The notes beneath the pieces are model-generated. The model was not told the DNA's origin. It ran no database searches and was given only the letters and a program-made list of their open reading frames with translations. Below are positions 32,355-63,132 of a stretch of DNA of 64,000 nt, in pieces (the first letter of the stretch is position 1; each line of letters starts with the position of its first letter). A program made the translations under genes and the position numbers. The stretch lies in contig CAVYJM010000006.1 of assembly GCA_963768855.1 (NCBI GenBank), positions 416,001 to 480,000 on the forward strand. Direction: 5' to 3'. Origin of the DNA: an uncultured Thermoplasmata archaeon. Lineage in GTDB: Archaea > Thermoplasmatota > Thermoplasmata > RBG-16-68-12.

Positions 32355-32427
32355 GCCACCCTAGCTCAGTCGGTAGAGCAGCCGCCTTGTAAGCGGCAGG
32401 TCGGGAGTTCAATTCTCCCGGGTGGCT
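32355..32427 (+). tRNA. tRNA-Thr(UGU), intron-less, CCA not encoded
   Basis: GCCACCC/GGGTGGC acceptor, GCTC/GAGC D-stem, GCCGC-CTTGTAA-GCGGC, GGGAG-TTCAATT-CTCCC; TTTTA promoter upstream. Confidence 0.97.
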
Positions 32428-50403: not shown

Positions 50404-50559
50404 GGACGGCTAGCGTACCTAGGTCGCCGGCCCAAGCCCCGGTCAGGCCGGGGCGGGCTTCCCACGGGCTCGCGCACCGTAGTACCGCAGGGAACGTGGG
50501 CGGGCTTAACTTCCGGGTTCGGGATGGGACCGGGTGTATCCCCGCCGCTTTGGCCGTCA
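50404..50559 (-). rRNA. rrf: 5S rRNA, stand-alone, about 156 nt with a ~35-nt expansion
   Basis: GACGGC/GCCGTC helix I; CACCCGGTCCCATCCCGAACCCGGAAGTTAAGCCCGCC core; GTAC..TGCGCGAGC..GGGAA; TTTA box about 27 bp upstream. Confidence 0.95.
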
Positions 50560-50609
50560 AACCACTGCTGACGACGCCCAGAGTAAACGCGCTATATCAG
50601 GGTTTTGGT

Positions 50610-54680: not shown

Positions 54681-56034
54681 GCGGCGAGGTCCGCGCCGGG
54701 CGGCCGGATGCCGGCGCCGGCGAAGAGGTCTTGGATGTGGAAGACCAGGGCCGACTTGATCTCCTTCATCCGTTCGGGCTGGTCCGTGTACGCGAACAGC
54801 TGGTAGAGGATTGTTCGCCCCTGGAGCTCCTTGCCGAAGACCTCGGCGGGTCGCTCCTTGACGATGCCCTCCGTCTCCGAGGCAGCCTGGAGGAGCAGCT
54901 GCTGCACGCGGTCATGGCCGACCTCGAATCCGACGGCCACTTCGACGAAGATGGCGTAGGGTTTCGAGCGGGAGAAATTGACAATCGAGGTCTGGAGGAG
55001 GGTCGTGTTCGGGATCTGGACGACCTCGTTGCGCAGGGTGCGGACAGAGGTCAGGGAGAGGCTCATGGAGACCACGTCCCCGACGAGGTTCTCGCCGATC
55101 TTCACCCGGTTCCCGACGTCGAACGGGTCGGCCCGCATGAGCGTGAACCCTGCGAGAGCGTTCTGGACCGGGGCGAAGCCGAACAACGCCAGGACGATCA
55201 TGAGCCCCACGAAGCCGACGGCGAAGACGATTAGCCTGTCTCCCGAGAGCACGAGGGCCAGGATGATGAAGAGAAGGACGACCGCGCCGAGGATCCACAC
55301 CGCGTACCGCGCGGCGCTCTTCAGCTCGTCCACGGCGCGCGGGACGAACTTCGTGCTGTGCCGCTTCATGTCCTCGAAGATCGAGTCGACGAAGCGGTCG
55401 GCGACGGCGATGCCGAGGAGCCCGAACAGGATCCCGAGGACCGCGAGCGGCTCGATCCCCGGGATCACGCCGACCGTCTGCTGGATGTACGTCTGGTCGG
55501 CGGGCGGGAGGGCGCGCAGGCTCCCGAGGACGGCGATGACGAGCGAGACGATGTAGACGACGTACTTCAGGACGATCTCGGCGAAGGCCAGGGCGCCCGC
55601 GGGGCGACCCGCTTCGGCTTTGTCTTCAGCTCCCCTCGGAGGAACGCTCCGAACCGATGGAGCACCCGCACCACGATGGCCCCCGCGAAGAGCACGAAGA
55701 CGAACACGAAGATCGCGGGGACCCGGAGCACGAAGGCCACCAGGACCGCGTGCAGCGCGTCCGACTGGGTCTGAGCGGCGGCGAGGATGATGATCGCGAT
55801 GAAGGCGATCCACACGCTCTCGAGGACGCGCCGGACGAAGTCGAGCGTCTTCTGGTCGAGCCAGGCGTTCTCGATCGTCTTCAGGTACTCGAAGTAGCGG
55901 CCCACGAGCCCGAGGACCCACATCATGACGCCCGCGAGGACGACGATGAGCACGATGAGCGGCAGGATGTTGATGAAGACGGACAACGCGTCGCCCCCGA
56001 GCTGGAACGGGAAGACGGTCAAAAGCGGCTCCAC
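54677..56034 (-). pseudogene. MscS-family mechanosensitive channel with one -1 frameshift (possibly artefactual)
   Basis: N-terminal TM region in one frame; from about 55600, AGALAFAE..NALAG..DPFDVGNRVKIG..G.V..IPN in another; shift at the GGGG run 55601-55604. Confidence 0.8.
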
Positions 56035-58678: not shown

Positions 58679-58849
58679 TCACGGGCCGACGAAGCTGCAG
58701 GTGGGGCAGTGATACGCGACGGACTGGTCGCGGCAGCGGGTGCAGCGGCCGATCTTGGTCTGGCCGCAGCTCGGGCAGGGGAACATCGTCGTGCCCTTGC
58801 CCAGCAGGACCGCGCCGCAGGAGGTGCAGCGGCTCTCCTCAGGGCTCAC
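58679..58849 (-). CDS. Small Zn-finger protein (DUF1610/HVO_2753 family)
   Basis: CTSCG..FPCPSCG..I.RC.RCR..Y.CP.C.F.GP; conserved position upstream of EF-1beta. Confidence 0.9.
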   Translation of the reverse strand: MSPEESRCTSCGAVLLGKGTTMFPCPSCGQTKIGRCTRCRDQSVAYHCPTCSFVGP

Positions 58850-59060
58850 GTCGCCTCGGAAGCAACGGGGTCTATAAAACGTTGTGGTCGCCCTCGAGTG
58901 GCCCGATTTCCATTCGCGGACATGGATAATTATCGACGGTCCGTCCGGACGGTCAAAAGCCGGACGGGCCGGGCCGCCGGGGTTCAACCTCCGACCGCCG
59001 CAAAGTTTAACTACACCCGCGGTTTTGGCAACGGTCCGCATGTCGCCGCCGCTAGCCCGA

Positions 59061-59224
59061 GGGCCCGTAGCTCAGCTAGGTAGGATGGCGATCCAGCCGT
59101 CCCTAGAAAGAGCATCCGGCTTTTAACCGCTTTTCGTCAAGAAGAGCGGAAAGAAACCGGGTGGTCCGGGGTTCGAACGGGCCCCGCGGCCCGCGCCGGG
59201 TCCCCGAAAATCCCCGCGGGCCCG
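59061..59224 (+). tRNA. tRNA-Lys(UUU) with three introns (59082-59108, 59126-59155, 59178-59210)
   Basis: Removing the three segments gives a 74-nt cloverleaf GGGCCCGTAGCTCAGCTAGGTAGAGCATCCGGCTTTTAACCGGGTGGTCCGGGGTTCGAATCCCCGCGGGCCCG; each junction forms a BHB-type motif. Confidence 0.92.
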
Positions 59225-59283
59225 TAGGGCTCCCGCGCGCGTGACATGCCAGGTCGAGAGAGGTCGCCCAGGGAGGAACCCCG

Positions 59284-59535
59284 TTGAGGTTCAATGTGCT
59301 GGAGCACCAGCTTGTACCAGAGCACCGCCTCGTCGCGGAGGAAGAGGCAGTGGAAGTCCTGAAGAAACTCCGGATCACGAAGGACCAGCTCCCCAAGATC
59401 CACCGGAGCGATCCCGTGATCCAGGTCCTCGAGCGAATCGAGGGCCCGATCGAGGAAGGGCGGATCATCAAGGTCACCCGCATGAGCGGGACCGCCGGAG
59501 TGTCCGTAGCGTATCGGTTGGTCATCGGGAGGTAG
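59284..59535 (+). CDS. rpoH: RNA polymerase subunit H (Rpo5)
   Basis: FNVLEHQLVPEH, QLPKI..SDPV, IKVTR.S.TAG...YRLV. Confidence 0.95.
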   Translation: MRFNVLEHQLVPEHRLVAEEEAVEVLKKLRITKDQLPKIHRSDPVIQVLERIEGPIEEGRIIKVTRMSGTAGVSVAYRLVIGR

Positions 59536-59538
59536 AGC

Positions 59539-62500
59539 ATGCGAGAGCTGATTGACGCGTTCTTCAGAGAACGCTCTATTGTGAACCATCACATTGCGTC
59601 GTTCGACGACTTCCTTCCGACGATTGACAACCCGAGCTCCCGGATGCAGCGGATCGTCGACAACCTACGGTCCTCGCCGGAGGACGACCGCCGTGGGATC
59701 ATCAAGCTCGACGAAGACCGGACGGAAGGGGACGTGATCGAGATCCGGATCGGCCGGAAGCGCGACGAACGCGGGCGGATTGACCTCGAGGCCAAGCCGA
59801 CGATCACCCTCGGCCTCCCCGTGGTCAAGGAGGCCAACGGCGCGACGCACCCTCTGACCCCCATGGAGGCGCGCCTCCGGAACCTGAACTACACGGCCCC
59901 GATCTACCTCGACTTCACCGTCATCGAGAACGGGATCGAGCGCGAGCCCGAACGCGTCCACATCGGCAACCTGCCGATCATGGTGAAGTCGAAACGCTGC
60001 CTCCTCTACAAGGAGAACATGGAGACGGAGGGGGAACTGACCCTCGAGGAGTACAAGCGGAAGCTGATCGAGGCGGGGGAGGATCCCTACGACCCCGGCG
60101 GCTATTTCATCATCGGGGGCACGGAGCGCGCCCTGATCTCCCTCGAGGATCTCGCCCCGAACCGGGTGCTCGTCGAGTTCAACGAGCGCTACGGGCGGAA
60201 GGTCGAGGTCGCGAAGGTCTTCTCGCAGAAGGAAGGGTACCGCGCCCTCACGCTCATGGAGAAGCGGAAGGACGGCCAGCTCATCGTCTCCGTCCCGACC
60301 GCCTCCGGCCAGATCCCGCTGATCATCCTGATGAAGGCCCTGGGCATGGAGAAGGACGAGGAGATCTACAACGCGATCGTCTCCACGCCCGAGATGGCCA
60401 ACATCGTCTACGCGAATATCGAGGAGTGCCAGAACAAGAAGAACTACCCGCCCAACGGGATCTTCACGAAGGACGACGCAATCAACTACCTCGAGAAGAA
60501 GTTCGCCACGGGCCAGGCGAAGGAATACCGGATCAAGAAGGTCGAGTCGATCCTGGACCGTTCCCTGCTCCCCCACCTGGGCGACACCCGCGAGGACCGC
60601 ATCAAGAAGGCGATCTTCCTCGGCCGCGTCGCGCGCACGATCCTGGAGCTGTCCCTCGGCAAGCGGCGCGAGGACGACAAGGACCACTACGCTAACAAGC
60701 GACTCAAGCTCGCGGGGGACCTCATGGAAGACCTCTTCCGCGTCGCCTTCGCGAACGTGATCAAGGACCTGAAGTACCAGCTCGAGCGGTCCTACGCCCG
60801 GCACCGGGAGCTCAAGATCTCCTCTGCGATCCGCCCGGACCTCCTGACCCAGCGGCTCCTGCACGCCCTCGCGACGGGGAACTGGGTCGGCGGCCGCGCC
60901 GGTGTGAGCCAGCTCCTCGACCGCACGTCGAACATGTCCGCCCTGAGCCACCTCCGCCGGGTCACGTCCCCGCTCACCCGGTCCCAGCCCCACTTCGAGG
61001 CGCGGGACCTCCATCCGACCCAGTGGGGCCGGCTCTGCCCGAACGAGACCCCGGAAGGGCAGAACTGCGGCCTCGTGAAGAACTGCGCCCTCGTAATCGA
61101 CGTGTCGGAGGGGTTCCCGGAGGACGAGGTCAAGCTCCTCCTGTCCGACCTGGGCACGAAGCAGGTGAAGGGCCAGCAGACCCAGCTCACCCGCGTCTAC
61201 GTGAACGGCGACCTGGTCGGCCTGCATGAGGACCCGAAGATGCTCGTCGCGGAGATCCGCGAACGGCGCCGCTCCGGCCTCCTCAGCCACGAGGTCAACG
61301 TCCGCCTCGACGAGAACATGGGAGAGATCATCCTGAACTGCGACGAAGGCCGGATCCGCCGGCCCCTGCTCGTCGCGAAGGATGGCCACCTCGTCCTGTC
61401 GCGCAAGCACACGGAAGACCTCAAGCTCGGTCGCCTCCGCTTCTCCGACCTCGTCCGCAACGGCGTCGTCGAGTGGGTCGACGCGGAGGAGGAAGAGGAC
61501 ACGTTCATCGCGGTCTACCCCTACGACGTCCCGGCGCGCTGCAAGGAGTGCAAGCACCCTCTGAGCCGGAACGACGTCACGTGGGTCAACATGGGGAGCC
61601 GCGACGAGGACAATGAGCTCGAGTGCAAGTTCTGCCACAAGACGTTCCACGTCAAGGGCTACATCTCGAAGGAGACGACCCACCTCGAGGTCGACCCGAT
61701 GATCATCTTGGGCGTGGCCTCGGGGGTGATCCCGTACCCGGAGCACAACGCGTCCCCGCGGGTCACGATGGGCTCGGGCATGGCGAAGCAGTCGCTCGGC
61801 CTCGGCCAGAGCAACTACCGCCTCCGCCCCGACACGCGGAGCCACCTCCTGCACTACCCGCAGCAGCCGCTCGTTCAGACCGACTCGATGAAGTACGTCT
61901 CGTTCAACGAGCGTCCGGCGGGGCAGAACTTCGTCGTGGCCGTCCTCTCGTACCACGGATACAACATGGAGGACGCGATCGTCATGAACAAGGCGTCCAT
62001 CGACCGGGGCCTCGGCCGCTCCTCGTTCATGCGGACGTACCGGGCGGAGGAACGCCGCTACCCCGGCGGCCAGGAAGACCACTTCGAGATCCCCTCTCCC
62101 GACGTGCGCGGCGCGCGCGCCGACCTGTCCTACGCGAACCTGACGCCCGATGACGGGCTGATCTCCCCCGAGGTCAAGGTCATGGGCGGGGAGGTCCTCA
62201 TCGGGAAGACGAGCCCGCCGCGGTTCCTCGAGGAGGAGACGGACTTCCTGACGCCGCAGAAGCGGCGCGAGACCTCCGTCACGGTCCGCCACGGCGAGGA
62301 GGGCTGGGTCGACTCCGTCATGCTCACGGAGTCGGAGAACGGCTCGAAGCTCGCCAAGGTCAAGGTGCGCGACCTCCGTATCCCCGAGCTCGGCGACAAG
62401 TTCGCCTCGCGGCACGGGCAGAAGGGCGTTATCGGTCTCATCGCGGAACAGGTGGAGATGCCCTTCACGGCCAACGGCATCATTCCGGACCTCGTCATCA

Positions 62501-63132
62501 ACCCCCACGCCATCCCGTCGCGGATGACCGTCGCCCACGTCCTGGAGCAGATCGGCGGAAAGGTCGGCTCCATGGAGGGACGGCCGATCGACGGCACGCC
62601 CTTCAGCGGCGAGCGGGAAGAGGCGCTCCGGAAGGGGCTCGAGGAGAACGGGTTCCGGTCGAACGGCAAGGAGATCCTGTACGACGGAATGACGGGGCAG
62701 ATGATCCCCGCGGAGATCTTCGTCGGCGTCATCTACTACCAGAAGCTCCACCACATGGTCTCCGGGAAGCTGCATGTCCGGAGCCGCGGACCGGTACAGA
62801 TCCTGACGCGGCAGCCGACGGAAGGGCGGTCTCGCCAGGGCGGTCTGCGGTTCGGCGAGATGGAGCGCGACTGCCTCATCGGGCACGGCGCGGCGATGGT
62901 GATCAAGGATCGCCTGCTCGACGAGTCCGACGGGACGATCCAATACGTGTGCGGGAACCCGGAGTGCGGCCACTTCGCGATCAAGGACCGCAAGGGCAAC
63001 CTTCGCTGCCCCGTCTGCGAGAACACGTCCAAAATCTACCCCGTGCAGACATCCTATGCGTTCAAGCTGCTGCTGGACGAGCTCCTGTCCTTGGGCGTCG
63101 TCATGCGGCTCCAACTGGAGGACATGCGATGA
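59539..63132 (+). CDS. rpoB: RNA polymerase subunit B (Rpo2, single chain)
   Basis: [49 protein letters not shown]; not split into B' and B''. Confidence 0.98.

Follow-up and report, generated by a model that had tools for sequence, protein, structure and literature searches.

A tRNA-Lys(UUU) gene with three introns in a Thermoplasmata order whose splicing endonuclease lacks the broad-specificity loop

Four exons and three introns

The window considered here is a continuous stretch of 64,000 nucleotides from the genome of an uncultured archaeon. A gene for tRNA-Lys(UUU) lies on its forward strand at 59061-59224. Exon 1 (59061-59081, forward) covers tRNA positions 1-20, with the 5' strands of the acceptor stem and the D-stem and most of the D-loop. 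Exon 2 (59109-59125, forward) covers positions 21-37, with the 3' strand of the D-stem, the 5' strand of the anticodon stem and the anticodon UUU. Exon 3 (59156-59177, forward) covers positions 38-59, with the 3' strand of the anticodon stem, the variable loop, the 5' strand of the T-stem and the bases TTCGAA. Exon 4 (59211-59224, forward) covers positions 60-73, with the 3' strands of the T-stem and the acceptor stem and the discriminator G. Excising 59082-59108, 59126-59155 and 59178-59210, all on the forward strand, joins the exons into a canonical 74-nt tRNA-Lys(UUU).

The preliminary description of this DNA had proposed the same structure, with bulge-helix-bulge (BHB) type introns at 20/21, 37/38 and 59/60. 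Its coordinates and motifs all agree with the sequence, and its identification agrees with ARAGORN and with the relatives. ARAGORN calls the joined exons tRNA-Lys(ttt) with a complete cloverleaf: 7 bp in the acceptor stem, 4 bp in the D-stem, 5 bp each in the anticodon stem and the T-stem, the T-loop TTCGAAT and a discriminator G. Reading the joined exons directly, one finds U8, A14, G18G19, U33, T54-T55-C56 and the discriminator G73. The exon 1 segment is 100% identical to the mature sequence in blastn-short. The bases after exon 4 are TAG and CCA is not encoded, so CCA would have to be added post-transcriptionally.

There is a line of evidence for the exon boundaries that does not use the splice motif at all. 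Other Thermoplasmata families have an uninterrupted tRNA-Lys(UUU) that is 92-93% identical to the spliced product over all 74 nt. Since these intron-less orthologues align over the whole length, they fix the boundaries independently of the BHB rule. Two junctions are ambiguous to the base. Intron and exon share an A there, so cutting at 20/21 or 21/22, and at 37/38 or 38/39, yields an identical mature RNA. The BHB rule picks 20/21 and 37/38, as the preliminary description had done. Cutting after the second base of the bulge at both sites restores the canonical tRNA, again as proposed, and each of the three separate introns has a splice motif of its own.

Standard callers were expected to miss such a gene, and they do. 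The unspliced locus gets no call from ARAGORN, with or without its intron mode, and none from the Rfam tRNA covariance model (Infernal) at the gathering threshold, whether the window or the whole genome is searched. In the window, standard tools report no RNA genes other than a lone 5S rRNA (50442-50561, reverse strand) and an uninterrupted tRNA-Thr(UGU) (32355-32427, forward strand).

Motif geometry was scored with a simple custom BHB detector script. Introns 2 and 3 are strict, with two 3-nt bulges and a 4-bp helix between them (hBHBh'). Intron 2 (30 nt, canonical position 37/38) has the central helix CTTT/AAAG, the bulges TAA and AAA, an outer helix of 7 bp and an inner helix of 9 bp. Intron 3 (33 nt, T-loop 59/60) uses the T-stem as a 5-bp outer helix and has the central helix TTCG/CGAA, the bulges AAC and AAT and an inner helix of 3 bp. 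Intron 1 (27 nt, D-loop 20/21) is only a relaxed, HBh'-like motif. It has a 4-bp central helix CTAG/CTAG, the bulges GTA and AAA and a 7-bp inner helix GGATGGC/GCCGTCC. Its adjacent outer helix has 0 bp, with A14 and G15 standing between the central helix and the D-stem. The 5' bulge is a proper one, and the 3' site lies inside a 3x2 internal loop beside the D-stem. A register that would turn intron 1 strict was sought and none exists. One relaxed and two strict motifs is also what the preliminary description had given, and both the script and the alignment of relatives bear this out.

BHB-like candidates are frequent in the GC-rich DNA here, with 164 in 400 nt. The motifs alone are therefore weak evidence, and the case rests on the orthologues, the conservation and the covariation. 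A solution with four introns, scored by summed helix length, was discarded as a spurious over-split and replaced by a splice guided by the mature sequence. As a separate observation, the first bases of intron 3, CGGGCCC, repeat the acceptor 3' strand exactly, and CCCCGCGGCCCG within the intron nearly copies exon 4 (CCCCGCGGGCCCG). In DNA this rich in GC the likeness may be due to chance. It may also mean that the intron arose by local duplication, or that it offers the acceptor 5' strand another pairing partner.

The flanks of the gene are also structured. A BRE/TATA-like element, CCGCAAAGTTTAACTACA, lies at 58998-59015 on the forward strand, ~45-63 nt upstream of the tRNA 5' end. Going by the archaeal BRE/TATA consensus, it would act as the promoter. 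In an alignment, all seven families of the order have the conserved block ccGCAAA(g/c)TTTA(a/t) upstream of this gene. Downstream of the element, GCATGTC (59038-59044) and AGCCC (59054-59058) in the 5' leader (59038-59060, forward) pair with GACATGC (59243-59249) and GGGCT (59228-59232) in the 3' trailer (59225-59255, forward). When 59032-59258 is folded, leader and trailer are predicted to form a long stem below the acceptor stem (z = -6.95). Leaders form duplexes of -30.4 kcal/mol on average with their own trailers, against -22.0 with trailers of other families and -20.9 with shuffled trailers. The pairing is kept with different sequences between families and is weak in family f2. The modelled stem may hold the four exons close to one another or help in processing the ends. 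It was also considered as a fourth BHB and rejected, since its 2x3 and 2x2 internal loops lie 5 bp apart.

Directly downstream of the tRNA gene is rpoH, starting at ~59284. The Pfam domains in 59284-63132 are those of rpoH (Rpb5_C) and then rpoB (Rpb2 domains), on the same strand as the tRNA. One contig from an RNA library bridges the tRNA and rpoH (59044-59324), which means the tRNA may share the transcript of the RNA polymerase operon. On the reverse strand, 58679-59041 is a 120-aa ORF with an HVO_2753-like small zinc-finger domain at residues 72-115. Its N-terminal extension would overlap the tRNA promoter and leader. Because the domain occupies only residues 72-115, this extension is probably untranslated.

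Conservation of the interrupted gene

A 224-nt query around the gene has matches in 59 of 61 relatives. Seven families of the order supply 49 loci, with 44 distinct sequences among them, and each locus has its introns at the same three positions, 20/21, 37/38 and 59/60. These positions were set by the splice guided by the mature sequence, and one locus with a mis-set 3' end (L013) was left out. The exons are almost invariant, with only 7 distinct mature sequences among the 49 loci. The introns vary in length, from 26 to 40 nt for intron 1, 22 to 52 nt for intron 2 and 27 to 38 nt for intron 3.

The helices are kept while the intron sequences change. In introns 1, 2 and 3, respectively, 88%, 86% and 93% of the central and inner helix positions pair, and a shift of the 3' strand by 1-2 nt lowers this to 27-68%. 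These figures come from sequences that share ancestry, and motif quality helped to decide where the introns end. Among the 33 distinct variants of intron 1 in the 49 loci, the central helix is paired in 33/33 at all four positions. None of them has an adjacent outer pair, since A14 and G15 lie between the central helix and the D-stem every time. The inner helix of intron 1 has pair changes of the type TG/CG/GC. In the 41 variants of intron 2 the outer helix is always paired and the central helix is 88-100% paired, with the compensatory types CG/GC/TA, GC/AT/GT and CG/AT/TA in the inner helix. Intron 3 (30 variants) has its outer and central helices 100% paired, and its inner helix changes as GC/AT/TG and CG/GC/AT/TA. 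This covariation in the relatives suggests that the splice motifs are maintained by selection.

A wider series appears across the class. We searched 201 genomes with the spliced sequence, then fetched and solved examples. Uninterrupted genes in this set match positions 1-74 with up to 93% identity, and families f24 and f12 (genomes G194 and G089) have tRNA-Lys(UUU) with no intron. The T-loop intron at 59/60 occurs alone in f21, f8 and f16, all solved; f15 may belong with them, going by a hit pattern of 1-60. The D-loop intron at 20/21 occurs alone in f19 and in one f17 genome (G102). D-loop and T-loop introns occur together in another f17 genome (G128, solved) and, by hit pattern, in f10 and f29. 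All three introns are found in the window's own order.

Other tRNAs of the same genome have introns at these sites too. There are 59/60 introns of 31-33 nt in five tRNAs: Lys-UUU, Lys-CUU, initiator Met, Leu-UAA and a CAU tRNA of the Ile2 type. In Leu-UAA and the CAU tRNA the central helix is mismatched, with 3/4 pairs. Lys-UUU and Pro-GGG both have a 20/21 intron, with identical geometry. Canonical introns are present in Gln-CUG, Trp, Tyr, elongator Met and Ser-GGA. Brute-force removal of BHB segments followed by ARAGORN yields false 'tRNAs' with 3-4 introns in coding regions, so the solver alone is not evidence, and we kept only good motifs that give canonical tRNAs. The solver missed Leu-UAA and the CAU tRNA because it required a perfect central helix, and both were verified separately. 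The tRNA-Lys(CUU) has two introns in the window's genome (37/38 and 59/60) and is uninterrupted in another family of the same order (locus L101, G041:C33:6970-7043). The intron content of this isoacceptor thus varies within the order, whereas Lys-UUU keeps all three. Lys-UUU is the extreme case of a lineage-wide intron pattern. The CAU tRNA with its 59/60 intron is present twice in identical form, on a small contig (G000:C16:1434-1525) and on a large one (C6:1074410-1074515). Either this is a true duplicate or the small contig is redundant, and the latter fits the 7.7% contamination of the assembly.

One can imagine that the locus is a decaying pseudogene into which DNA has been inserted, with AAA codons read by another tRNA. 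The failure of the standard callers fits this, and so does the fact that no spliced RNA has been seen. The contigs of four RNA libraries from metatranscriptome studies contain no spliced joints and cover the locus in unspliced form only, but such contigs can prove neither transcription nor the absence of splicing, and contigs of short, modified tRNAs are not expected there. A decaying gene should not keep its exons near-invariant in seven families while its introns vary and hold their helices through compensatory changes. It should not keep its promoter box either, nor have its insertions exactly where BHB cutting gives a perfect cloverleaf. Nor was another tRNA-Lys(UUU) found to take over. 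A second copy, which could have told against the preliminary description, was sought in the assembly with ARAGORN, the Rfam covariance model, blastn-short and an anticodon-arm scan, and none turned up. The mature sequence hits only the four exons, in order, and fragments of other tRNAs, and no tRNA-like anticodon arm with UUU is present elsewhere in the genome. As the genome is 93.6% complete, there is a small chance of a second copy in unassembled DNA. We consider a pseudogene very unlikely.

Even less credible is an artefact of assembly or binning. The genome is a MAG of 24 contigs with 7.7% contamination, which is what such an argument would have to start from. However, the same architecture of 160-190 nt recurs in 49 other assemblies, so the independent assemblies clear the gene of the misassembly that would have undone the preliminary description. 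At least seven studies have public DNA runs that contain the stretch, and the runs come from wetland, soil and sediment. Single RNA-library contigs cross the exon-intron boundaries, such as the one at 59044-59324, and the locus is internal to a contig longer than 1 Mb, where it immediately precedes rpoH-rpoB. We argue that 59061-59224 is very probably a functional tRNA-Lys(UUU) gene and the only one found in the assembly. The three-intron gene is genuine and conserved, and is probably essential.

A loop-less endonuclease and a relaxed intron

The route to the mature tRNA would be as follows. The precursor would be transcribed from the BRE/TATA promoter ~50 nt upstream, and its leader and trailer would pair. 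Each intron would fold with the neighbouring exon bases into a BHB-type motif. A single EndA would cut after the second base of each 3-nt bulge. RtcB would then join the four exons, the ends would be trimmed and CCA would be added. We infer transcription from that promoter, the cleavage and ligation, and the handling of intron 1 by a loop-less EndA from the sequences. The genome encodes both enzymes. RtcB is at C6:311586-312893, and EndA is a single ORF (P0001, 374 aa, G000:C17:~54944-55963) outside the window; no second EndA gene was found in the genome.

EndA is a single fused protein of two units. Pfam finds two tRNA_int_endo_N and two tRNA_int_endo domains in its 374 aa. In the alignment the C-terminal unit keeps the Y/H/K triad, and the N-terminal unit has the Tyr and the His replaced. 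With two tandem units in one polypeptide and only the C-terminal one predicted to be catalytic, the enzyme would be classed as alpha'2-type. Its N-terminal unit is full length, unlike those of the Thermoplasma and Archaeoglobus enzymes. The best match of solved structure is the beta-alpha fused M. kandleri enzyme (PDB 5X89, E = 5e-37, full length), which is a better match than the alpha'2 enzymes of A. fulgidus or T. acidophilum. The close relatives of this EndA all come from MAGs titled Thermoplasmata, Methanomassiliicoccales or Thermoplasmatota, which agrees with the preliminary placement of the host in Thermoplasmatota.

The architecture of EndA is expected to say something about the introns. 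Reviews place multi-intron tRNA genes and non-canonical positions mainly in lineages with an (alpha-beta)2 or epsilon2 EndA (PMC4090602, PMC5829648). In the reviews, the euryarchaeal alpha4 and alpha'2 enzymes take strict motifs, and such genomes have single canonical introns (PMC4090602, PMC4033280). The broad-specificity types are (alpha-beta)2 with the CSL/L1 loop, epsilon2 with the ASL/L2 loop and alpha4 with the L3 loop. Kaneta et al. tie the cleavage of relaxed motifs to the loops L1-L3, and an insert of the CSL/ASL type is likewise tied to it (PMC5829648). The preliminary description had framed the literature in this way, and the framing is fair (PMC4090602, PMC5829648, PMC8450103 Table S7).

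The EndA here has no such insert. The ~11 residues that follow GYYGQ in the A. pernix alpha subunit are missing, the protein is gap-free against M. jannaschii and M. kandleri at the loop site, and there is no C-terminal insert. An inserted loop with a conserved Lys is absent from the catalytic unit. Without a CSL/ASL-type insert in this fused two-unit protein, nothing in the sequence marks it as permissive. Among 18 Thermoplasmata EndAs there is no lineage-specific indel and none that tracks the D-loop introns. The preliminary suggestion of an unusually permissive EndA or an ordered splicing pathway is therefore only partly borne out, because the enzyme has no permissive mark and an order is not required. 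In the predicted minimum free energy fold of the precursor, the acceptor stem and all three intron hairpins form at once (z = -5.9). Since all three motifs form together there, an ordered removal is neither imposed nor needed.

Introns 2 and 3 are strict and should be acceptable to any archaeal EndA wherever they are placed. Intron 1 has its 3' site in a 3x2 internal loop and is therefore a demanding substrate. This leads to an alternative that concerns only the mechanism: EndA alone might not remove intron 1, and either the enzyme has a cryptic broad specificity or it is helped by the tRNA body, by modifications or by a protein partner. No adjacent outer helix exists in any of the 33 variants, and Pro-GGG has the same geometry. 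Loop-less EndAs are inefficient on an HBh' intron at 20b/21, yet M. kandleri matures such a tRNA in vivo (PMC5829648); the loop-less AFU enzyme and the fused MKA enzyme both cut the HBh' D-loop intron poorly in vitro (PMC5829648). The two 59/60 introns with 3/4 central pairs point the same way. The non-catalytic N-terminal unit has a conserved LPRGGxP(K/R)TPS(K/R)YW where the catalytic unit has Y..H. Lineages with D-loop introns preserve this stretch well, and some that lack such introns have a more diverged version, in a sample that is small and phylogenetically confounded. Against all this, a comparison with M. jannaschii and M. kandleri shows no insertion at the L1/L2 site or around the catalytic residues, and a family with an intron-less tRNA-Lys(UUU) (G089) has the same type of EndA. 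We find this alternative possible but rather unlikely, and simple cleavage of all three introns by EndA remains the reading we prefer.

A bolder claim can be made from the same evidence. The order may depend on a loop-less fused EndA that removes a relaxed D-loop intron from its sole AAA-reading tRNA-Lys, and mismatched T-loop introns from other tRNAs, through an undescribed recognition of relaxed motifs. We put this forward tentatively and consider it doubtful. If it is true, relaxed motifs might be recognised through the conserved basic stretch in the non-catalytic unit, through the folded tRNA body, which serves as a ruler in eukaryotes, or with a cofactor. The architecture of EndA would then no longer go with the intron repertoire as textbooks have it.

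Implications and comparison with known systems

Genes of this kind are known, but neither the lineage nor its type of EndA would have led one to expect one here. The most immediate consequence is for annotation. Common finders miss this tRNA-Lys(UUU) as well as Lys-CUU, initiator Met, Leu-UAA, the CAU tRNA and Pro-GGG. As a result, MAGs of a widespread soil and wetland lineage seem to lack essential tRNAs, and estimates of completeness from tRNA counts, or of codon capacity, come out wrong. For evolution, one orthologue within a single class has no intron, a D-loop and/or T-loop intron, or all three, and always at the same sites. This series of intron states is a clean natural setting in which to ask whether archaeal tRNA introns arise by gain, disappear by loss or are copied from gene to gene. 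For enzymology, a loop-less two-unit EndA must handle three sites including a relaxed one, and the genome shows no substitute for this tRNA. The rule that alpha4 and alpha'2 enzymes need strict motifs at canonical sites can be challenged directly with the precursor of this gene in vitro.

The tRNAscan-SE 2.0 census covers 217 genomes and places all 16 three-intron genes in Thermoproteales, with 0 in 144 Euryarchaeota (PMC8450103, Table S7). For the Methanomassiliicoccales it records 6 non-canonical introns and one two-intron gene in 3 genomes (PMC8450103 Table S7). Beyond this clade table, the searchable literature yielded no paper dedicated to tRNA introns in Thermoplasmata, Methanomassiliicoccales or the window's lineage. 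Nor did the searchable papers hold a description of the same architecture in close relatives, which would have lowered the novelty claimed in the preliminary description.

The three-intron genes of Thermoproteales are the obvious comparison (PMC8450103, PMC4033280, PMC4090602). They too have up to three short EndA-type introns per gene, in the D-, anticodon- and T-loops, with strict and relaxed BHB motifs mixed, and simple tRNA finders miss them as they miss the gene here. Their hosts have a heterotetrameric (alpha-beta)2 EndA with the Crenarchaea-specific loop, whereas here there is one fused two-unit EndA without it. Their insertions are scattered and variable, whereas here the same gene has the same three sites throughout an order.

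Closer in its enzyme is Methanopyrus kandleri (PMC5829648). Its pre-tRNA-Glu(UUC) has a relaxed HBh' intron in the D-loop at 20b/21, essentially the same site, along with a canonical one at 37/38, and both hosts are of euryarchaeal type with an EndA that lacks a specific loop. The MKA EndA consists of separate alpha and beta subunits that were fused artificially, whereas the fusion here is natural. Its tRNA has two introns and none in the T-loop, against three here. Splicing of the MKA tRNA in vivo is backed by RNA-seq, whereas for the gene described here it is predicted.

The T-loop intron has its counterpart in the pre-tRNA-Cys(GCA) of ARMAN-2 (Ca. Micrarchaeum acidiphilum), which also has a 59/60 intron with the T-stem as outer helix (PMC3239211; PMC5829648). 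ARMAN-2 differs in having a three-unit epsilon2 EndA with a specific loop of its own. The motif cited there is relaxed (hBH), but intron 3 here is strict. Finally, the Methanomassiliicoccales belong to the same class, Thermoplasmata, and non-canonical introns exist there at the level of the database (PMC8450103 Table S7). No three-intron gene is recorded for them, and the positions and the tRNAs concerned are not discussed. The lineage described here has more such introns, with all three sites occupied in a single tRNA-Lys(UUU) gene.
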